Positions 2,098 through 59,105 are shown, counted from the first letter of the whole stretch. The stretch is 62,775 nt of DNA, filler included, from Rhabdomonas costata (GCA_019059605.1; 30 parts of 30 records of this genome joined end to end with filler, not necessarily neighbours in it), one strand, 5' to 3'. Program-made: numbers and translations. The notes: generated by a model from the sequence alone, not told the origin.

Positions 2098-4196
2098 CCA
2101 GTGATGGCCACATTACCTCTTAGACATCTGCCGCAAAGCACTCATATAGACTCCCAAACACCACCCTCTTCAACCCACCTCAGAAGGGGTCAGGCACCAG
2201 TTGGAACATGCACCAACATCAACGTCTGCTTTCGTATAGTGGTACCCACAACCGCGGCAGAGACTGTGCTCGGGCACCGACGGCGCTCAAAGAGTCTTCA
2301 TATTGGCTGGGAAAAACGCTGTTTACGTGGGTTTCTACCTAATTCCTCCGGAAGCAATGTGAAATGCTGAGGAGTTTCAGTCTCAGTCTCAGTCCGCTCG
2401 AAGGCCGATCTCAATAACACCCAAAACAACCCATTGTCCATCCAAACGCACCTTTTTGCGAAGAGCCAGCATGCTCGTAGAAGTATCGGGGCCCGAGGGA
2501 ATCCACGAGGGACCACTCCGGTGAACAGAGAGGCACCTTCATCGGAGCCGAACGGTCGCCTCAAAAGATAAAAACAAGGTTATCTGTTCCTCAGCCTTCA
2601 AGAAGAATAGAGTTACGGGGGATGCTGCTCCCCTCACAATACGTATTGAGAGCAATGGCAAGCCTGCCCTTTGATGACGCTTTTAAAAGGTGAGTTTCTG
2701 AACATACGTTGTGGTTGCCGTAGATAAACCCTCCGAAGATAAAAAAGGAAGATCCGCCAGGGGGCAAGGGCGGGTTCCGGCCTGAGGGTGCAAGGACCAC
2801 CACGCAGCGTTTCGTGAAGCCCACTGTGCATAGAAAAAATCCCAGCCCTGCTTCGCCCTGCCCTCCAAAACTGTTAAACTGTTGGGTTCCTTGTTGGTGT
2901 TGGTGGTGGTATCGCTTGTGCTGCAGTGGGTTCGTCGTGCTGTGGTTTCGAGTGCTGTGATTGGGTTTACGGGTGCGCGGGTTTCGGATACGGGGTTGGC
3001 CTTCACATTTATGTGTTTGGGGTTGGACATGAGGGTTCGTGCGCTGGATCTTTGTGCTATGGGCGCTGCTCTTCCTCCTTCTTCCTCTGTCACATTTTGC
3101 GATGTGAAAAAGGTAACAAAACGCAATATTCCTGGCCCTTGCCGATTTCCTTTCCCACATTTAAGACCTCCTGTGGTGTCACTTGAGTTGAAAGCGGTGT
3201 CGGTGTTCCATATTTGTGAAAATGAAACCCCCGCTAGAGTTTCCAGGATACGATCAATTTGTCTCCATCGGTGTGCATTTTATCTTATCGCTCTCTCTTC
3301 ACTCCTCAAATGCTGCATTAAAACTCATGATGTACGGGAGAAGGAGGGGTCACGGGACGAAGACACACAGACAAAAACACACCTCGCGAAGCGGAGCTCC
3401 CTCTGCAGGGCAAGAAAGAAAAGCCTGTATCCGTGGTCTCGTGGGCGCGCTTGACCTGAGAGGTAATAGGTTGGAACCACAACTGATTCCTACCAGACTT
3501 TAAGGAGCAAACAAAAGTCGCTAACAATCGCGAAAGGAACAGCAGGATCCTGCAAAATATTGAAACAACCAAAACGAAGAATAAAATACCTTAAGCCTAA
3601 CTTCACTGCCAGAACCCAAAACACTGTCAAGTTTCATCCACCCGTCAGACCGCTGTAAGACAAAAAAAACCAGAAAAGATCTTATGGCGTTTAAGCCTGC
3701 GCTGTCCGCTTAGACGATAGGAAATCATAACCCTTCTTCTTTTTACCCTCGCCTGGCACTCTCGAAAAAGCATCCAACTCGAGACCGCACGGAGACATTG
3801 AACACCGTCTAGTGCGATGCAGAGATGAAGAGCCCATCTTGAAGGATGCGGATGAAGCCAAAAAGACGTATTCTATAATCAGTCATGGTTGCATTTTCGC
3901 AGAGAAACAGACAGGACGGTTGCCCAGCACGGGCCCGCAGTCCAGGCTATTTAGACAAGTGGCATCCAATTTTCTTCGCGTAGGAACACAGCCACACGTA
4001 CTGCCACCTCTTCGCAGAGAACAAGGCACTCGGTCTCCAGCTTTTCGGCGCGCTCTCTGTGAACGAGGCCCTTACCCGGCACTGCACCCACACANNNNNN
4101 NNNNNNNNNNNNNNNNNNNNNNNNNNNNNNNNNNNNNNTTAATTAATTAANNNNNNNNNNNNNNNNNNNNNNNNNNNNNNNNNNNNNNNNNNNNCC

Positions 4197-5926
4197 CCGA
4201 AGACCCTTCCACAGCGACCAGTTGCAGATACGTTGGAAGATATTTTCAGACAGCTGAATTTGGGTAGGGGACCGTTGGTGGAATCTCACAGAGGATGTAA
4301 TGCACAGCAAGGGACCTGAACCACAATGACAGGGGTTTTCATAGCCACGCCCTCGACTTCCACAGAGAGTGCAGTGCCCAAGGCGGCTCCAGAGGCAGTT
4401 CCTAATTTGAGTTCGTCTTGTAAATACCCAGTGTTAGACAATCCAGAGAGTGTTATGGTGATTAACATGGAGTTTATAAAATGCTCGAGTGAGGTTTTTG
4501 AATCCAGAGTTCCACATGATCAGGCCGTTACATGGATAAAGGCAGAGGAGCTGTGTACATATGGAGTACTTTGAATTATCCGCGTGCGAATTGGGACTCG
4601 CTTTTTTGGTGTGATAAGAACTTCAGTAACACAAGGCAAGGGTGGACTTTTGAGCAGTTTGTTTCTCTTGCAGAGTACCATATGAGTGGGAAAAAGCCCT
4701 GTTGGACAGTGATGTTTCCGAGAGAGTGGGTGTGGGTTTACAGTGTTCCAGAGGGAGATAACGTTTACTTTGCCGTCTACGACGTGCACCCCATGATCAG
4801 TGCGAAACATTACCTGTCCAGACCCTGGTTTGATGACCCATCCAGAGTGATTAACGAGGTGGACCGGAGTTGTTGGTGGTACGCAGAGAACAACGTTCAC
4901 CAGTTAAGATACAGTCCAGGAGAAGCGGGTACAACTTTTGGGCAGTTTTTGCAGAGATTGAAGTCGAAGGTGCGGACGATGAAGCCGGATAAGTTAATGG
5001 TTAAGAGAAATCCAGAGGAGGAGGAGTTGCTGAGCAAATATTTCTAGTTGGTAGGACTTCCAGACCATCCGCCGATAGTGGTATGCCCCAGAGTAAGAGT
5101 GAAGCAGCCAGGTGCGTTGTCTTCAGAGGTCCAGAACAAAGTGTTGCATCCATTCAAGTTTGCTGTGAGGACTACAAACCCATGTCACTTGGTACAGCAT
5201 GTGGAGAATTCACGTTTCCAGACAGAGGACAAGGTGGACAACTGTGCCGTTGTCGAGTGCTTGTATTACTCAGTGTATGGGTTGCCAGGTTCCAGAGTGG
5301 TAAGTTTCACAAATGACCGTTACCCGACGTTTATCAGACACTTTGCCCTTGACGAGAGGAGGTCCATTCCACAGAATCCAGGGAGCGGAGAAGACTTGCT
5401 GAGCAAGTGCCTAACATATTTTGGACCCCCACCTGGTTGAGGTTCTAGAGAGTTGCACAGAGCCGGAGAGTTTCATAGATAGAAGATCCTTTCCACAGAT
5501 GGTGTTGATCAGAGCTGAGGTTTTGCGACCGTTTCCAGAGATGTGCTATGCGGATTGTGATTACAGATGTGCGTGCGGTTGGGTGGTGTTTCCAGATGGT
5601 ATGTGGCGTGTTTCCAGAACTTGTTGCGTGATGTGATGTCTTTCCAGAGGGTGTGTTGTCCGCGTGTTGCAAAGAGAGTGAAGGAGATCTGGTGGAGAGA
5701 TGTTCCATGGGACGATTTTACACAGGTGATGTTCAGAGCTGGACCGTAATGAGTGATCCGCCGTCGCCCGTCTGTTGGGACGTTCTCCGTACTAGCAGGG
5801 GAGCGTGTAACGGTCCAGGTCACCAAGGTGTTCCTCATACCAGAAGAAGATAGCCATGACATCAAGGTGTTTCAAGAGACTAGTTTCCAGAGGTTTCATA
5901 CAGATTCCAGAGAGCCGACAAGGTGA
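4197..5926 (+). pseudogene. Decayed intronless coding region of unknown family (candidate endogenous viral or mobile-element remnant)
   Basis: Consecutive + strand ORF pieces (4197-4574, 4532-5047, 5048-5440, 5421-5636, 5567-5749, ~5753-5926) link through single in-frame stops or short frameshift overlaps; no exon/intron pattern; TCCAGA-rich. Confidence 0.45.
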
Positions 5927-6292
5927 GCGGAGACGGATCTCAGCCTCTCGTGAGCCAGCTCCTGGCCAAGCGCTAGGTCAGGCTACCTATTCACAGCTGG
6001 GCAAGAGAGCAAAGCAGATTAGGGCCAGGTGAGAGATGGATGGCCGACAGAGTGACAGTGGTGGAAGACCCAGGGTGAGACAGAGAGCCAGGCCACGGGA
6101 GGGAGGCCGCATGGAAGGGGAATGCGTGCACACAAACCGACTGCAGCGATTCAGGTGGTATGTTTTCGGAGTTTTTCAGAGGAAGAAGGATGNNNNNNNN
6201 NNNNNNNNNNNNNNNNNNNNNNNNNNNNNNNNNNNNTTAATTAATTAANNNNNNNNNNNNNNNNNNNNNNNNNNNNNNNNNNNNNNNNNNNN

Positions 6293-8289
6293 GGGTGTGT
6301 GGGGGAAGGTGCCGATCCCAAGCTGAGGACCCACACACAACGTCAACACGTCAGCAAGAGGGCCCAGATGTTGGGATGTTCCCTGCGCTGCCTTCCACCA
6401 CCTTGATGCATGGTACAGTAAGATGTTTTTGCCCCCCCCCCCTTGCCTTTACAGGTTTGGTTTTGCCGTTTTTGCCTGCATGTGTCTATGCCTACGCTTG
6501 GAAGGTCCACTTTTTTTTCTGCACTGGCTTTAAATCGGGCTTGGCCTGGAACTGTGGGTTGGCACAACGTCCGCATTGTATATGTTGTTGGTTGACTTGG
6601 ACAAGATGATACGCAGCGAAATTAGTGGTGGTCAGCCATTGGAATAGGTCATAGCCGTGTTAGCCCATTGGTGGTGGTGGTGGCGGTACTATATCGTATC
6701 AAGAGGGAACTCATGGATGACGTCACTAATTGTATGAGGATTGTTTGAAATGGTGCATCAACATTTGCAGCTGCACAGAATCAGATTGTCAAGGAAGTGT
6801 AATGTACAAACCAGTTTTCTTATTGTTCAGAGTCGCCTTGCTTTCAGTGGTTCACTTTTTTCTAGGAGTGGGGAGGAGAAAAGCTTGCGCTTTTGGTACA
6901 GTTTCACATTTGAAACATTTGGCTTTATTTTTCTTTTCCAATTGTTGCACCGTTTCAACCGTTTGGTTACCACTGGTTACCATCTTCGCATGCCTCCATC
7001 ATTTCCCAGGAAACACAGGTGAAGCGTGATCCCGTGCAGGCCTGCCCTTCGCCCGCCTGTGCCCGCACGGTCCAGCGGCACCCCGACCTCCGGCATGCTT
7101 TTCAGCGCGCCCTAAAGGCTGTTGTAAAGGATTTGTGGGTGAAGGGGTTGAGGTCAGAAGAGCTGGGATTTTCATAGCATGTTCCGGCAGGCAAATACTC
7201 GGGTCCCGACGTGGTGATGGCGAGTCGAGAGGTGGGTCGTGGGTCGTGTGGTTGACGTCGGTGCTGCGTGGGGAGTGGGTCCGTGGGTCTGGGTTGTGTG
7301 TCTGTGGGTTGGGGTGACGTGGGCTGGTGGGTGACGGTGGAGGGTGCGTGCTGCTGGTGAGGCACGGTGAGGATGCGTGGCTGAGGGCGTTGGGTCAGGT
7401 GGTGGTGGTGTTGGGTACGGTGGGTTGCGTGGAGGGGCTCGGTGGTCGGTGGGTTCCTTGCGTCGGTCTTTGCATCCGGGGCCTGGGTTCGTGTCTTGGG
7501 GTCTGGGGTTCGTGTCTTTGCTTTCGGTCTCGGTTTCGGTCCATGCCATAGCCTCGCATCCATCACTAGGACTTTCCTCTGACGCCAAAATACGCCAGGT
7601 ATCTCACTGCTGCTCCTACGTTACGTATGGTCAGCTAACACGTGGTTCCAGGATCGCTGAGGTACAACGTGGATCGAGCGCCTCGGTTCAACTTCACCAC
7701 ATGCGTCCATGGGTTACTGACCTCGTGAGCATCTTCGTTCCGTACTTGTCACCGTGTACAAGTGTACTGTGGCTACAATGATCCGCTTCGATCGTGCGTG
7801 CAAGCTTCGGACCGCATCCTTATCGAGTCACGCCGTCTCAGTCGTTCACCTTCACCGTATCCTGCACATGGAGCTCTTTCTCGTTCGTCAGCCCGGTCTC
7901 ACTACTCAACCTCTCACGCTAGCGGTGGATCCTGATGGAGGTGAGCTGTCCCGGTTAACCACGCGTGGCAATGACCGACAGCCTCCAGTGGTTGGGTGCC
8001 CGAATGGTTCGTGGTGAAGGATACGGCCATGTGTTTGGTGACCGTACGCAGTGGGCTAAGGCCACTGCTGTATGCACTCCACTCTCCCCGCTAGGGTACA
8101 CTCCCTTCTGTTGGAGTTGGAGGGTAAGACATACGCGTAGACAACCTCCGTTGATGCTCAGGAAGGGTGAGTGAGGGAAGGTGCCGATCCCAAGCTGAGG
8201 ACCCACACACAACGTCAACACGTCAGCAAGAGGGCCCAGATGTTGGGATGTTCCCTGCGCTGCCTTCCACCACCTTGATGCATGGTACA
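6293..8289. repeat. Contig with ~125-bp terminal direct repeat (unit ~1872 bp; tandem unit or circle)
   Basis: 6303-6417 is identical to 8175-8289; the preceding 10 nt match 8/10. Internal GGGTC/GTG-rich low-complexity tract at ~7200-7545; no credible ORF. Confidence 0.85.
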
Positions 8290-27255: not shown

Positions 27256-29251
27256 CTGAGGTTGCTCTCTTTCGAGCCTCAACTCACAGCTTTTGAACTA
27301 GCTCAGCGGTTCGGCGCTTGCCTCGTACCTATTATTTTTACCATCTGTTCTGTCTGTTCCCATATTGACCAAACGAATTATCGAAACGAATTATCCCCTC
27401 AACATGTTTCCGAACTGAAACTGAAGTTTTTGAACGCTCTAAAAACTCATCATGATAAGTAAGTTGAACCTATTTTTATCTCCGCCTTTTTGAAGAGTTT
27501 TCGAAGGATGTTTATTTGTGCGACGTTTGCCAGAACATTTCGCTGCGTCTCTGCAAAGCCCCTACTGGCTTATTTACTCAATGGAGGCGATATATCACGA
27601 AAAACAAGGTATTTTTTTCTTGGTTTTTCTTTTTACCATGAGTACAGCATCCGAAAATGTGTTTACCATTGTGTACCACTACGTACAGTTCTTCGATGAA
27701 ACAGTTTTCCTCGAAAAATCATGGGGCAATTCTTCGGGCAGTGAGCGCACACAAACAAAAACAACAGCCCTTTTCAGCGTTGCGCCGACCAGCAAGTCTT
27801 TTTGTAACCTGTCCCTCTGCTCCATACCAAGTGCCACGGGGCGTTCTTTGGGGGCTTGAAAGTTTGCACCTTTTAAAATTCAGGTGAAGCCCCACCTGTG
27901 CAAAGCGGTCACTCTAAAAGGCCAGCGCGGAGAGAACCGCGTCCTCGTCCCTCTTCAGTTCACCGTCGTGAGGATACCCGGTTCACAAAAGCTCCGGAAG
28001 AACAGGAAGAGAGTTGCAGAGTTGATAGTCTGCGCCGGAGCGAAAAACGCAGAGCCTAGAAGGTCGTCAGGGGGCTGTACTGCTACCATTCTTGGGCAGA
28101 GTGAACACTCAAAAAACCGAGCTTTTGTGAACCGGGTATCCTCATGGCACCAAAAACAAATCTATCTGAACATACCCGCTGGCAAACAAACTGTGTGCAG
28201 TTCAATGTTAAAACCGCTGACGAGGTGACAACAGCGTAGTCCCCAATACGAAGCACCCCCACTCACCCGTTCACCGAGGGCAAAAACCACAGCGGTCGCT
28301 GTGATTGGAGCCCGAAGTGAAGCGCGAACACCGCAGACAGAAAACCCCTTAGCAACCTCAACCGTCACTGAAGCAGAACGGAAGTGCTGATATTCAAGCA
28401 CTCCTCCTCCAGAAGCTGGCGAGAGGTGGTGCAGCAAAGCCGGTGCTCTTCCAAAAATCTGTTGGTCCCGTAGAAGTTGCCGACTTCCTGGCCAGTTCAA
28501 CCTGGCAAAAACCGCTAACACGTCAAACACAAACGTTTGGTGGCTGAAAACCACCGGAGAGGTTTCTCTCTCTTTCACTTTGTTTTTCGGCGGTCCACTA
28601 AACTCGTGGCGGCAAGAAATTAACCAGACGCATTAAGTCGAGGGCCACCTATTTATGCTTTGCGGTGGTTGGTATTCTGGCCTTTCACTTTTCCTCCATC
28701 AATCCGCAAAAGAAAACGTATCAGTTTTCGCAACTCTGTGGGAGAGTCTCTCTTGGACTCCGGGTGAGGCGGGAAGCCCCCTCCCCCCGCTAACCCTGAG
28801 TGAGCAGCAGACCGCTGTGTCTGAGCTGCTTCGCCCTCCGAACCTACTTCTCGGTCCCGCCCCCCTCGCACTGGACTTCTCACTCGTTCACCCTCTGCGA
28901 CGGCTGGGAGTGCAGCTGAGAGGCGCCAAAGAAAAGGAGAGTGAGTCCCGGGAGGTGTGCCGAGCGGTTGGGTGGGATTATCAGTGTCAGGCTTACTGAG
29001 GTGTCTTGTCAACGTGGGGTTGGATTTCTCGTGTTTAGGTTTCGAGTTCTGAGTTCGGTTTTGGGGCTTCTTGGGTTCCAGTGTGTGAGTAGGCCTTTGG
29101 TGCTGCTGATGTGGGTAGATGCTTCTGAGGTTGCTCTCTTTCGAGCCTCAACTCACAGCTTTTGAACTAGCTCAGCGGTTCGGCGCTTGCCTCGTACCTA
29201 TTATTTTTACCATCTGTTCTGTCTGTTCCCATATTGACCAAACGAATTATC
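27256..29251. repeat. Cyclic contig with exact 127-bp terminal overlap (unit 1869 bp; circle or collapsed tandem array)
   Basis: 27256-27382 equals 29125-29251 exactly; 127 is a standard de Bruijn k-mer size; no G/T primer tails at the ends. Confidence 0.9.
28800..29200 (+). mobile_element. CRE-like restriction-like endonuclease remnant inside the cyclic unit
   Basis: LLRPPNLLLGPAPLALDFSLVHPL...KEKESESREVCRAVGWDY resembles RPADxL...ALDxxVxHP...K..C...GWxF; the PD-equivalent Asp appears replaced and a stop follows. Confidence 0.65.
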
Positions 29252-36070: not shown

Positions 36071-36439
36071 ACCTTCACCACTTTCACTATTGCGTCTTCT
36101 TTCTTGAAAAGCTTACCTGACGCTTCCACCTCATCTTCTGGTTTATTATCTTTTTTCCACCGGGAGAATATTCCGTCTTTCGAGCCATTCAAATAAAACC
36201 TCTCCTTGTAAATGGTGACGCATTCTTAAAGAGAGGGAGACGCAACATTTCCTGATCAGGGGGGCGTACAATTGAAGTTTGCCTGGCTCACTTCTCCTAT
36301 AAAAAGTAATTTGTCGTCCCCTCCATCTTATTATTCGGGTACGGCGAGTGTGCTCGTAACAACGTTCACAGTAGTTCGGCGCGAAGTTCAGCCTCGTCAA
36401 ATTTTCGCCGATACCCTTTCTCCATTCGTCGGGACACAC

Positions 36440-37257
36440 CGATCAAACTCAGGCACGCCCCCGCCGGACTGGAAATGGGTGACCAGGTTAACCGCTTCGG
36501 GGCCGAGTTCCCCGAAGAACACCACCTGCCCACCCTTCCGTAGCAGCAGTAGGCTCTCGAACATGCTGAACAGCATCGTGCTGGGCTGGTGGATGGTGCA
36601 GATCACGGTGCGGCCCGTGCGAGCCACGTTGGTGATTGCCCGCATGACCATCAGCGCCGCCTTGGAATCCAGTCCTGATTGGGGTTGGGGTGCGGAAGAA
36701 GGCTGCAATGGCAAAACGAAAGATCCAAACAAACAAATGGCAACTGCCATATGACAATACACAGGTGCCAAACGATGGGAGGTGAAATATTTCGTACCGC
36801 GATGAACAGCTGCGGGGGGAGCGGGAGGTTGGGAATCCGCAGAAATAGAAATTTGATCGTGAATGTCACATTCCCAGAAATGCGACATTGCTGTCACTTT
36901 AAAATACCCATGGCACACAATAGTACCTAAAGGCCGATTAACGCAAAACAACTGCACATGACGACAGAAATGGCTCGCAAAGAAAGCCGAAGAAGAGCAA
37001 AGGAAGCACAGGAGCAGGGGGAGCAGGAGCAGGAGGAGGGTGGTGCGCAAGCGATAGCACAGGAACCACTGGTGGGCTCGTCCAGAAACAGGATCGAGGG
37101 GTTGGTCACCAGCTCCACCCCAATCGTCACACGCTTCACCTGCTCCACGCTCAGCCCCGCGCCCTTCACCCCGATCAGCTGGTTCGCCAGTGGCCGCAGC
37201 TCCAGAAGGTCCAGCACTAGCCTCACGATGTCCTCCTTGGCCTCGTCGGAAACGGTG
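36440..37257 (-). CDS. ABCG/PDR-type ABC transporter, second nucleotide-binding domain (exons 37257-37067 and 36674-36440)
   Basis: [62 protein letters not shown]...[14 protein letters not shown]; LSVEQxKR is characteristic of PDR NBD2. Confidence 0.95.
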
Positions 37258-37735
37258 CTGTTTTGAGGAGTCGACGATGCTCACCGCGGCGCGCCAAACC
37301 CAAAGACTCTCTAACAACCATACCGCTCACCTTCCCCGGACAGCTTGCATGTAAGCAAAAGCGGCTGTGGGCGGTGCTTTGTCTACATTAAGGGTGCTTC
37401 TTTGTTTGATTCAGTTTCTCATCTCTGCAGTTCAGCTGTTCGAGCACTGAGCACTGCACGGGGCGGCAGTGGCACAATCTAAAATCAAAGTGAGATAATG
37501 TAATGAATCGAGCAAATCGAATGGGAAAGAAGGAGATTACACAGGGAGATATGTAACAGACGATGGCAGCTTCTGGTGTTTCGATGGCAGTTTCGCTGCC
37601 TCCCCGCAAAACGAATTGCGTCTCACCGGCGNNNNNNNNNNNNNNNNNNNNNNNNNNNNNNNNNNNNNNNNNNNNTTAATTAATTAANNNNNNNNNNNNN
37701 NNNNNNNNNNNNNNNNNNNNNNNNNNNNNNNGGGG

Positions 37736-37914
37736 TTTGGTTCGATGTTCTCCATCCCCACATACATCATACTCACACGCACACAAACTTCCTGCGCCTT
37801 TCACTCATGCTTTATACGTCTTTTATCGCCACCTCTCCGCCTCAAGTCAAAGGCGCAGGAAGTTTGTGTGCGTGTGAGTATGATGTATGTGGGGATGGAG
37901 AACATCGAACCAAA
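37736..37914. repeat. Perfect 66-bp inverted repeat with 47-bp spacer at contig start (probable amplification fold-back)
   Basis: 37736-37801 is the exact reverse complement of 37849-37914. Confidence 0.9.
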
Positions 37915-41820: not shown

Positions 41821-41926
41821 NNNNNNNNNNNNNNNNNNNNNNNNNNNNNNNNNNNNNNNNNNNNTTAATTAATTAANNNNNNNNNNNNNNNNNNNNNNNN
41901 NNNNNNNNNNNNNNNNNNNNGTGTGG

Positions 41927-42088
41927 GGTGACTTCAGTTGCTGTGGTGGTCTCCTCTGCACTGCTGACGTACCCACTCACCCGAGTACACACACACACAC
42001 CCTGCATAAAAGTTCCATCTGCTGTGCAACTCGGGTGAGTGGGTACGTCAGCAGTGCAGAGGAGACCACCACAGCAACTGAAGTCACC
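41927..42088. repeat. Perfect 60-bp inverted repeat with 42-bp spacer at contig start (probable amplification fold-back)
   Basis: 41927-41986 is the exact reverse complement of 42029-42088; it duplicates an exon/intron junction. Confidence 0.9.
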
Positions 42089-42380
42089 ACGCACAGGATG
42101 ATTACCACCAGGATCAACATGGCTCCGAAGCGCCGGTTGATTTTTTCTAGCAAAACATCGCTTCGGACAAGTTGAACAAGGACCCACCTGGAAAAAAGAA
42201 GAGGGTGTGCTGGCGGAACGAATTATTATGCGGGATCATTGCCGATTCCTTGAGCTATAAACTTCCACGGAGAAGTACAGTACGGAAAATAGCGACAAAG
42301 AGGGCCATCGCATAATAGTCGCCGAGGGTTCTGAAGCGAGTCTCGCACTTTCCAAGTCCAGTAACAAAAGAGAATACATA
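42047..42380 (-). CDS. Two exons of an unknown membrane protein
   Basis: Phase-compatible join CILFCYWTWKVRDSLQNPRRLLCDGPLCRYFP|WVLVQLVRSDVLLEKINRRFGAMLILVVIILCVVTSVAVVVSSALL. Confidence 0.4.
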
Positions 42381-56853: not shown

Positions 56854-58563
56854 CTGCACAGCTCGGGCCCCGGCCAGAGCGACGTTGGCCAAAACCTTGT
56901 CCAGCATGGCGTCACAGGGCCCGTTGCACGGGGGCCAGTGCGAAAGTGCGGAGAAAACCTGGTACACGAAGGTGAGATAGAATCAAATATTACATCCAAC
57001 TAATGTAAAACCTGCCGGTACTCAGACACAAAGGCGGAAGCTTGAGTGAAGGTCGAGAATTTGGAACCACTCCCGGATTATCCTGAGCACCTTTCCTGTG
57101 TGCCCACGAAGACAGATAAGGGACACAGTGGTCCATCTTGCCTGCCATTCCCTCACCTTGCCCGGGTTTCCCTACTACCACCGACGCACCTGGGGTGGTT
57201 TGTGGTGGGTTGCGCCGGGCAGCTCCCGCATGGCAACTTCGGGGAATCCTCCGCTGGCAATGGGCAGGCCGCCAGCTTGCTCCTTGTGCGGATGCGGCAG
57301 TTGCGGCACCTGCTCTTCCGCGGGGAGGAAGGGGAGGTCAGGGGGTCCTCCATGGGCAAGGAGCTCGTAGGGGATCTCTGGCCGCACCAGGCGCTCATGG
57401 AGCTGCTCGTTGGAGCAAGGCGGGGGCTGTAAGTAGGAGCCGTAGGGGAAGGCACGACAACAGCACCACCGACACACCATCCCTACAACCATGTTGTCCG
57501 TTTCACTTGAAAAGTTGGAACTGTCCATGAGATGAGAGCATTTCGGACTCCAGTGAAAAAGGGTCGAAAAATGAAAACCGAACTCAGATGACCCCCCCCC
57601 CTGTAACCTGCCCACTTTGTTGCATTGGCGTTTCCCATTTTTCTTACTTTGGATTTCTACAATTTACTTAACAGTGAATCGGGTCATATCATACCACTCA
57701 CGGTTTTTCAAAGCCATACGACATATTCCTGCAGACGGTCTCCTTCGCCCCTTCGCCTCCATGGATGCCCCACTAAGCGGTGATGGGAAAGTTGACGTCG
57801 GTGTGGAGGGGTAGTTACATAAACCCAACTAATCAATCAATAGTAAAGCCCACCAACCTCGTAGTTCAGGGTACGGATGTCGCGGAAGATGGAGGAGATA
57901 TCCAGCAGGGCGGCGGCCCGAGACTCCCGGTCGACCAGAAAGTGATGCAGCCACCTCATGTGGAAGTCGTATACCAGGGCGTTGACGTGCAGGGGGTTGT
58001 GGACACTCATCACCTGTGTGGAAGTGGGTTTGCACATGTACGGGGTGGCAGGCGTGTGTGTGTGTGTGTTGGGCGCATAGCATACCGGCTGTTGCCTGAC
58101 TGGCTGTTGGTTGGTGACCACTGCGGACTGCCGGGCGCACGAGCTGTTGGCCACGTATGCTTGTGAGAGGCTCCTTCCGAGCGCGCAGTGCCGTGGGGTA
58201 CTGGCTTACCGCTGACGCCGAGCGTTCCACCTGAGGAAACCTCACTTCTGTCCCACGGATCACGGATCCCGGGCCTTTGAGGCGCAGCTACTTTTTCCGC
58301 ACGCTACTCGCGTGATCCGCTGATGCTCAGGTCTCTGAGGCTCCTTCCTCCTCTTTTCAAACAAAACGTGTGTGCTTGTGCGGCATTGATCGGTTTTTAA
58401 TCAGTGAAGGTCTGCACATCGCGTCTGTGCTTTTGATGTCACCCAAAAGCCACTTTGCCTCACGCTCGCTCCTCCCTCGAGCACACCTCTGCCACAAAGG
58501 CCTGAGAAACCTCAGCGGAAGAGGCCGTGGGGCGCGCAAGCTTCTCCGTTTCCCCTGGAGGAG
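56854..58563 (-). CDS. Probable SZT2 (KICSTOR subunit)-like C-terminal region (exons 58563-58487, 58013-57858, 57426-57190, 56958-56854)
   Basis: Four GT-AG exons joined in phase 0; AFVAE|VMSVHNPLHVNALVYDFHMRWLHHFL resembles the HVHSFSYDFHLR segment I recall from animal SZT2. Exon structure is solid; the name is tentative. Confidence 0.5.
58055..58350 (-). repeat. Dispersed ~300-bp intronic repeat ending in (CA)n, copy A
   Basis: Shares colinear blocks with 58805-59105: CAGAGACCTGAGC, GGCCCGGGA, GTGGAACG, CCCCACGGCAC, CGTGGCCAACAGC, CAGTGGTCACCA, CAGGCAACAGCC, ATGCGCCCAACACACACAC. Confidence 0.85.
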
Positions 58564-58804: not shown

Positions 58805-59105
58805 CAAGGAAGGAGTGTGGAATCGCAGAGACCTGAGCCGCAATGGAGCAATGCAGGTAGCCGCTGGAAAAGAGCAGCTGCGCGACAATGGCCCGGGACC
58901 CGTGGGGCAGAAGGGAGGTTACCAGATGTGGAACGTTCGGTGGTGAGCCGATTTCGGTTCCCCACGGCACCGTTCGCCAACGGCACCTCTCGCGAGCACC
59001 CGTGGCCAACAGCGCGTGCGCCAGTCAGTCCCCAGTGGTCACCACCAACCAGTCAACCAGTCAACCAGGCAACAGCCAGCGCGCAATGCGCCCAACACAC
59101 ACACG
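58805..59105 (+). repeat. Dispersed ~300-bp intronic repeat ending in (CA)n, copy B
   Basis: Diverged homologue of copy A; ends about 8 nt before the acceptor AG of the rhodanese exon. Confidence 0.85.

Follow-up and report, generated by a model that had tools for sequence, protein, structure and literature searches.

A six-base word, TCCAGA, recurs 17 times on one strand of a 1,998-nt contig (GC 0.50) from Rhabdomonas costata, across all three codon phases of a broken gene. The feature is real and unusual, and it lies on an unclassified family of elements whose other members have the same strand polarity. For its mechanism we propose, tentatively, a lineage-specific mark for a putative binding protein, selected on the single strand of the element while it was active; on the same reading, the contig would be a genomic copy, now dead, of an unclassified eukaryotic selfish element.

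The window and its contigs

The window, the whole stretch of 62,775 nucleotides that was analysed, is made up of 30 unrelated contigs of ~2 kb with N spacers between them. The TCCAGA feature is confined to the contig at 4195-6192, and the 29 other contigs were used as the host control. These contain pieces of eukaryotic genes, with Pfam matches to an ABC-2 transporter (E = 7e-6) and a phosphodiesterase (E = 4e-8), weaker acyltransferase and IBR matches below the cut-off, and GT-AG intron ends recognized by eye.

Some of these contigs have features of their own. Two exons of an ABC-G transporter, with a GT-AG intron of ~400 nt between them, lie on the minus strand at 36397-37213. Fold-back inverted repeats of ~180 nt at the starts of two contigs (37732-37914 and 41921-42096) are read as chimeras of whole-genome amplification. 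The contig at 1-1997 is AT-rich (22% GC) and intronless, with long ORFs at 203-1225 and from 1275 to the contig end and a near-identical ~70-nt element ahead of each (189-257 and 1261-1329, 87% alike); its appearance suggests a piece of a giant virus whose genes have a promoter in common, and its ORFs gave no Pfam match above the cut-off. Terminal direct repeats of 125 nt (98%) and 127 nt (100%) are present in the contigs 6293-8289, which has a G+T skew on the + strand, and 27256-29251; both are assembled as circles or tandem units of ~1.87 kb. An inverted repeat of 289 columns (74% alike), a dispersed repeat of the host, is shared by 58060-58337 and 58826-59104 in two adjacent contigs.

TCCAGA is in excess on one strand

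The words of the contig are located as follows.

4388, 4442, 4503, 4747, 4817, 4841, 5011, 5059, 5130, 5217, 5291, 5534, 5591, 5613, 5643, 5886 and 5906, + strand: the 17 exact matches to TCCAGA, spanning 4388..5911
4225..6181, + strand: the CAGA family, with 41 CAGA (2 TCTG) and 26 CAGAG (0 CTCTG)
5562..5567, + strand: TACAGA, a one-mismatch site that becomes an 18th TCCAGA if a single listed difference of other copies is applied

All 17 copies reported in an earlier note on this DNA lie exactly where it placed them, at a density of one per ~90 nt, and its statement that TCTGGA is absent from the + strand is true of the whole contig. The preferred context is T-TCCAGA-G, with T preceding in 10 of the 17 and G following in 11, and one-mismatch neighbours number 21 on the + strand and 6 on the − strand. 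Comparable enrichment or skew was found in none of the 29 other contigs of this window, where TCCAGA never exceeds two copies on the + strand.

The number of copies expected depends strongly on the null model, from 0.38 (order-0 Markov) through 1.3 (dinucleotide shuffles) and 3.7 (trinucleotide) to 8.8 (tetranucleotide), so that the earlier figure of well under one copy was too low. At each of the di-, tri- and tetranucleotide levels, however, 0 of 1000 shuffles contained any hexamer at 17 copies. The 10 sites within the gene are distributed 4/2/4 over the three phases of the homology-anchored frame, as the claim of all-phase placement requires, and are read as S-R (4), x-P-E/D (4) and x-Q (2). 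Codon and amino-acid bias had been discounted as explanations, and rightly so: shuffles among synonymous codons, with protein and codon usage kept, gave 1.6 copies compared with the 10 observed, and 0 of 5000 reached 10. Nor are the copies remnants of a decayed tandem repeat, since TRF finds no array in the contig, the flanks of different copies share 26% identity where random pairs share 25.5%, and 8-12-mers are not repeated in excess outside the motif. The spacing of TCCAGA is not even (CV 0.83 versus 0.92 in shuffles, P = 0.38), and no significant periodicity was detected, at 10.5 nt or otherwise.

A many-copy element and its relatives

4195..6192, + strand: the contig, a fragment of a many-copy heterogeneous element, with matching pieces and polar composition throughout
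4694..4725, + strand: the best-conserved DNA block, matched also in the relatives L001, L002 and L003
5441..6192, + strand: the downstream part, which has 6 TCCAGA and, in each of the three phases, short open frames; covered in the runs X1-X3

Pieces of the contig at 80-100% identity numbered 2037, 700 and 480 in the runs X1, X2 and X3, counts that give no copy number, since the pieces are short and amplification may distort depth. The three runs are one sample of one study and hold 0.16-0.28 of the sampled words. By identity, the X1 pieces divide into 405 at 99% or more, 661 at 95-99%, 675 at 90-95% and 296 below 90%; in all three runs the pieces show indels and rearranged joins, and 30 of 30 bins are covered. 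Among the datasets that carry the stretch, no RNA dataset is listed.

A phmmer search of 1.84 billion representatives returned eight remote protein relatives (E = 1.6e-19 to 1e-4), all singletons from JGI or ENA contigs of 544-1240 nt. Four metagenome loci, L001-L004, carry the same gene at a protein identity of 34-46%, with stops or frameshifts in all four. By sequence, the relatives P0001 and P0002 come from L003 and L002, respectively, and are therefore not independent of those loci. The pattern used in the DNA pattern search was verified to match the window and three of the four relatives. The downstream part, 5441..6192, could not be significantly aligned to L001-L004; a likeness of 5371-6192 to L001 and L004 that was seen by eye was not significant and was dropped.

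A 28-nt sequence is repeated at the ends of L004 at a distance of 2358 nt, with 26 of 28 positions alike, and the alignment of L001 continues over the L004 junction (355 columns, E = 5e-37). The unit is thus head-to-tail or circular, and a free circle fits the 2,358-nt L004 unit equally as well as a head-to-tail array. The 5′ flanks of L002 and L003 are foreign and differ from each other, which suggests integration, or possibly chimeric assembly. The foreign flank of L002 (L002:1-136) is non-polar (AG 9:CT 7) and abuts the element; it contains a reverse-transcriptase-like motif of 46 residues, which we take to be of the non-LTR type and which has no Pfam match. At L001:2140-2208, element-like DNA ends in (GAA)n followed by unrelated DNA, at a place where L004 continues; this is a possible 3′ tail or break point.

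No relatives were found in IMG/VR, GTDB genomes, phage sets or plasmid sets, and no tRNA in L001-L004. A word-index protein search returned none for the window ORF and, with alignment A2, three fragments that were already known; among longer proteins, alignment A5 returned none, which is weak evidence. In the ESM Atlas, the first ORF gave leads only, to unnamed clusters at 0.93 with a recognition of 2268, below the 2300 mark, and the second gave nothing. A literature search, with subscription journals, repeat databases and supplements outside its reach, yielded no description of the element or of the word; repeat libraries in the supplements of euglenid genome papers could include the family. 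The earlier suggestion of an unrecognised virus or mobile element holds in that the element is multi-copy and unrecognised; its viral half found no support: capsid, packaging ATPase, pPolB, integrase and Rep genes were sought, and none of these hallmarks was linked to the element. The family is seen as many broken copies with a common gene and one permuted unit, and its location is presumably nuclear.

The broken gene and its protein

4425..5440, + strand: a broken single gene, with a first piece in frame at 4320-4574, a main piece at 4520-5047 and a continuation at 5048-5440
5045..5047, + strand: an in-frame TAG, a sense codon here in P0003, P0005 and L001
4464..4472, + strand: N-M-E, where the relatives have D-x-E (L001, L004) or D-x-K (L003) and the X1-X3 copies differ at 4464
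5240..5257, + strand: N-C-A-V-V-E, where the relatives have H-C-A-L-V-E (P0005) or H-C-A-V-V-K (L001); ExoIII-like by eye only

The gene is frameshifted near 4537-4540, and its homology to the relatives is statistically supported for about 4408-5370 (L001-L004 extend back to ~4408). Since P0005 runs over the TAG at 5045-5047 into the next frame, 4520-5047 and 5048-5440 are one gene. What had been described as a decayed intronless ORF is therefore a single broken gene, and it aligns with its relatives without intron-sized gaps. An alternative genetic code was rejected because the stops align with differing sense residues in different copies. In the gene of L001, L003 and L004, silent changes make up 35 of 100 singletons where 24 would be expected (P = 0.01), an excess indicating that the protein was once under selection; in the window gene, 2 of 18 listed differences are silent when taken singly.

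Motifs resembling those of DEDD exonucleases can be picked out by eye: an ExoI-like D-x-E (N-M-E at 4464..4472 in the window), a second acidic residue after a hydrophobic strand, and H-C-A-x-x-E. They fall in the order ExoI-II-III in a forced alignment, with ~76 extra columns after ExoI and with the last D replaced by E or K. The protein has no Pfam match, and its best matches in PHROGs (E = 0.097; the search covered P0009-P0011 and P0013) and NCBIfam (E = 0.023) are not to exonucleases; the best PDB sequence match is at E = 0.7. Against a profile of 80 viral DEDDh-type proteins the family profile, which is shallow (Neff 1.9), scored 14.2 in hhalign, within the range of 40 controls (6.8-15.9); with the insert removed post hoc the score was 13.95 and 4 of 40 shuffles were higher. 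Two structure models, at pLDDT 34.5 and 37.8, are too poor to judge the fold, and the Foldseek search for which the earlier note had asked gave, with these low-pLDDT models, no match at E ≤ 0.001 in PDB or BFVD. From its sequence motifs, the protein may work like a DEDD exonuclease, a putative assignment. The N-terminal region of the family protein (L004:519-1340) is acidic and probably disordered, without a Pfam match, and includes two basic clusters that by eye resemble a bipartite nuclear localisation signal.

Strand polarity is shared by the family, the hexamer is not

The bias of the contig extends beyond the hexamer, with strand ratios of 31:6 for CCAG, 78:18 for CAG:CTG and, along the whole contig, 217:63 for AG:CT. 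CAGAG is spaced more evenly than in count-preserving shuffles (CV 0.52 versus 0.87, P = 0.001), as is CAGA (P = 0.008); the evenness of CAGAG is joint third among 27 frequent 5-mers, and in the relatives' words 0 of 5 tests of evenness were significant (P = 0.06-0.39).

TCCAGA itself is present at only 0-2 copies per strand in all four relatives, and is thus lineage-specific rather than family-wide. Their top words are GAAG, CAGAA and CCGAAG, in weaker excess than TCCAGA in the window contig. The dinucleotide tilt is the same, with AG:CT at 259:41, 101:22, 146:24 and 274:46 in L001-L004. The value of log2(rhoAG/rhoCT) is 1.12 in the window contig and 1.03, 0.99 and 0.89 in L001, L003 and L004 (−0.9 in L002, printed for the opposite strand), with the other 29 contigs of the window spanning −0.33 to 0.26. 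The AG-over-CT polarity is present in all three codon phases and runs without a switch all round the L004 unit. Complementary 6-mer pairs are at 0.77-0.90 of the shuffled level in the four family members tested and at 1.12-1.63 in all 29 other window contigs. Folding z-scores are near zero (+0.64 for the window contig, −0.22 for L001 and +0.29 for L004), and whole-region folds were uninformative.

TCCAGA has the properties of a polar word: an excess on one strand, independent of frame and above codon-aware nulls. The proposal of a polar nucleic-acid-level signal stands with respect to this contig, in that codon-preserving shuffles fail to produce it and the 29 other contigs lack it, and has to be narrowed with respect to the family, in which TCCAGA belongs to one lineage.

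The word is laid over codons

Identity to L001 is 29% for motif bases, 51% for the 9-nt flanks and 54% for the rest. With base and codon position taken into account, 23.1 of the 45 alignable motif bases should match L001, and 13 do (P = 0.0016); among the 23 motif residues, 5 are common to any relative where 11.9 would be expected (P = 0.002). One of the 10 in-gene sites spans an alignment gap and was left out of these counts, so that the divergence test uses 7-9 sites in a shallow alignment. Of the 15 CAGA sites that can be aligned, none has a counterpart at its position in L001. Statistically, TCCAGA appears to have overwritten conserved codons in the window lineage, at an amino-acid cost.

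Retention of the word was assessed on the best-supported 40 of 296 differences to other copies, where linked unlisted neighbours are possible. Within these best 40 of 296, none falls in TCCAGA (2.05 expected, P = 0.12) or in CAGA (2.76 expected, P = 0.05), and one TCCAGA and three CAGAG are added (0.48 expected for CAGAG, P = 0.012). The spared sites give weak support to retention of the word. Among 166 singleton changes in L001/L003/L004, CAGA, GAAG and CAGAA were not significantly protected. In these dead relatives the polarity is not being maintained: losses of AG number 52 (41.5 expected) and gains of CT 15 (16.3 expected).

Possible origins of the word

Since the word stands on one strand, apparently at a cost in protein sequence, that strand was probably once read by something, and in our tentative reading the word is a mark for this putative reader. 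The active element, which in a relative is a unit of ~2.4 kb, head-to-tail or circular, with all coding on one strand, would have passed through a single-stranded stage, as RNA or ssDNA. The single strand would have been selected to remain unpaired, with words present and their complements absent, and a short word every 50-80 nt would have been bound by a coating, packaging or self-marking protein, which most likely came from the element itself or from a helper element. From one lineage to another the word would have changed more quickly than the protein (TCCAGAG in the window contig; CAGAA, GAAG and CCGAAG in the relatives), would have been laid over codons at an amino-acid cost in the window lineage, and the polarity would have lost its upkeep once the relatives died. 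The polarity, the excess, the lineage-specific overwriting, the many broken copies and the one permuted unit are observed; the single-stranded stage and the reader of the strand are what the reading would add. Selection is favoured because rewriting of several bases, confined to the word, together with even spacing is hard to obtain by mutation alone. Against the reading, the searches turned up neither a binding protein nor a capsid nor an intact copy, all four relatives have at most two copies of the hexamer per strand, and TCCAGA itself is unevenly spaced. A bolder version, which we regard as distinctly unlikely, would have one-gene circular or tandem protist replicons of ~2.4 kb as an undescribed class, without a polymerase, integrase or capsid of their own, whose own nuclease-like protein reads the lineage word and in that way coats the strand or spares it, the word and its reader drifting in step.

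The main rival, itself unlikely, is a strand-biased, context-dependent process of mutation or editing during replication of the element, with no reader. A directed mutational process would also write the word over codons. TTCCAGAG is a chain of strand-favoured dinucleotides (TT, CC, CA, AG and GA high; AA, GG, CT and TA low), and would hence be a sink of such a process. The tilt common to the window contig and L001-L004 is consistent with it, tetranucleotide content alone yields 8.8 of the 17 copies, and the lineage-differing top words and their erosion in dead copies fit a process of the active phase. However, dinucleotide content yields only 1.3 copies, and the motif cores have diverged from L001 while their 9-nt flanks have not, so that several changes per site are needed. 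A memoryless process also predicts random spacing, whereas CAGAG is more even, and there is no clear context-specific change among the 166 singletons.

Host RNA processing, as an intronless transcript with few pyrimidine tracts and with purine-rich, enhancer-like or acceptor-like words or through the euglenid CAG-CTG intron code, is improbable. TTCCAG/A can be likened to a compact 3′ splice acceptor, and SR proteins have word preferences. The motif strand is the sense strand, CAG exceeds CTG on it, and pyrimidine runs of ≥8 on the + strand number 2 in the window contig and 0 in L001, L003 and L004, compared with 13-30 purine runs. On the other hand, many acceptors within one gene would cut the gene up, the pyrimidines before CAG are just 0.09 above background (equalled in one other contig, and absent in the relatives), and CTA, CTC and CTT, at 12, 12 and 20, are scarce to much the same degree as CTG, at 18. 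The nonconventional intron signal of euglenids (5′ N3-CAG with CTG-N5-6/R) was sought in the contig; with 78 CAG, 18 CTG, no TCTGGA and no long inverted pairs, the contig does not fit the CAG-CTG intron code. The CAG-CTG pair is needed for nonconventional splicing in Euglena (PMC12501133). The CAG × CTG product of the contig, 1404, is inside the range of the 29 other contigs (119-2560), which means no loss of pairing chances; only the relatives have lower values, of 610-824 per 2 kb.

Priming, in which the minus strand would template discontinuous synthesis and its CTG/CTCTGGA words would be putative primase starts, is quite improbable. DnaG and PrimPol recognize CTG and make primers that start with AG. 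In L001, L004 and the window contig, the + strand holds more CAG than its dinucleotide shuffles do (z = 2.4-3.6), the polarity runs unswitched around the L004 unit, and CAG was lost less often than expected among the relatives (10 losses where 16.8 were expected, P = 0.044; 19 words were tested). A spacing of 25-50 nt, however, gives more sites than a 2.4-kb unit should need, the lineage-specific 5′ TC and the relatives' excess of GAAG are left unexplained, no primase, helicase or Rep is linked to the element, and a literature search on a primase reading yielded nothing.

A Chi-like self-protection, which is very improbable, would have the element's DEDD-like 3′-5′ exonuclease stopped by the word, so that the strand of the element is spared and foreign nucleic acid destroyed, while word and enzyme drift together. 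This predicts polarity on one strand and lineage-specific words, and the acidic and His motifs come in the order ExoI-II-III in the forced alignment; but the DEDD assignment scores no better than shuffles, every copy seen is broken, and DEDD exonucleases are not known to respond to a stop word.

Ordinary host DNA, a decayed tandem repeat, codon bias or chance is largely refuted and hardly credible: the window as a whole, on both strands, does hold slightly more TCCAGA than shuffles (42 against a mean of 32.9, with 3 of 100 reaching 42), but shuffled and codon-preserving nulls fail, the copy flanks are unrelated, the region encodes a protein conserved in other samples, and clusters of TCCAGA in IMG/VR (a scan for triple TTCCAGA, at least 140 viral loci) are nearly all one-phase repeats, 0 of the at least 140 loci encoding a relative. 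Two IMG/VR loci among the matches listed, L011 and L068, have TCCAGA over all three phases (17:2 in 4.1 kb and 9:0 in 2.8 kb); they have no AG/CT skew and encode no relative.

Should a protein read the word, this would be a self-marking system in a eukaryotic element, with a protein outside all family libraries searched, and the turnover of the word between lineages would permit a direct test of the co-evolution of word and reader. If it is written by mutation, there would be a strand-specific process able to overwrite codons and to break the balance between word and complement, a balance that is broken in all four family members tested and in 0 of the 29 other contigs. Either way, AG-over-CT polarity combined with low self-complementarity gives an alignment-free handle for finding members in protist assemblies.

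Comparison with known systems

The sites of NS1 recur through the coding parvovirus genome and are bound there by the virus's own protein, over coding DNA; like TCCAGA, they are a short word of a small selfish genome. The words here are single hexamers rather than tandem tetramers, their reader is putative, and the copies are many and dead. For Protoparvovirus, the binding site is given as (ACCA)2-3 (PMC10194145). Unlike in a parvovirus, a gene for HUH or an SF3 helicase, a capsid and a terminal hairpin were not found; a HUH Rep with SF3 helicase and a capsid gave no Pfam match in the window ORFs, P0010, P0013 or L004:519-1340.

Terminons, Athena Penelope-like elements and rotifer LTR elements are described with coding in a single orientation, arrays of head-to-tail units, copies that are truncated and accessory DEDD or DEDDy ORFs (PMC6431247, PMC5408684). 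The present family may resemble Terminons and Athena in its co-oriented coding, its one permuted unit (L004) and its truncated copies, and the reverse-transcriptase-like scrap abuts L002. It differs in that the unit is 2.4 kb rather than 6-40 kb and the DEDD assignment is by eye only, and the passages on those elements mention no reiterated polar word (PMC6431247, PMC5408684). An Athena-type reverse transcriptase had no match in the translated parts of the unit, the 46 residues of L002 being outside the polar DNA, and hammerhead ribozyme and Rfam searches gave 0 matches in the window (gathering score) and 0 in L001-L004 (E ≤ 1).

Among eukaryotic DNA transposons, KolobokD carries an accessory DEDDh nuclease, and KolobokP forms multimers with proposed circular intermediates (PMC9587614). 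The likeness is of a eukaryotic element with a putative DEDD-like protein, or with a multimer or circle form; unlike in Kolobok, as there described, a DDD/E transposase and terminal inverted repeats were not detected in any locus, the true ends being unseen.

Decayed viral DNA occurs in Euglena (PMC12455990), and a decayed intronless foreign gene in a protist assembly recalls Polinton-like viruses and giant endogenous viral elements. The contig is 50% GC, with no viral hallmark and no relative in IMG/VR, and pPolB, integrase, packaging ATPase, double jelly-roll capsid and terminal inverted repeats were not found in the contig or in the translated parts of L001 and L004. All pieces are 1-2.4 kb, which leaves room for a longer parent element.

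Chi, KOPS and uptake sequences are bacterial words, oriented or frame-independent, that lie in genes chromosome-wide at kilobase spacing. The word described here shares with them the strand orientation or independence of frame and the writing into genes at a cost to the protein; unlike them, it belongs to a small element of a eukaryote, with a copy every ~90 nt, and differs between lineages.
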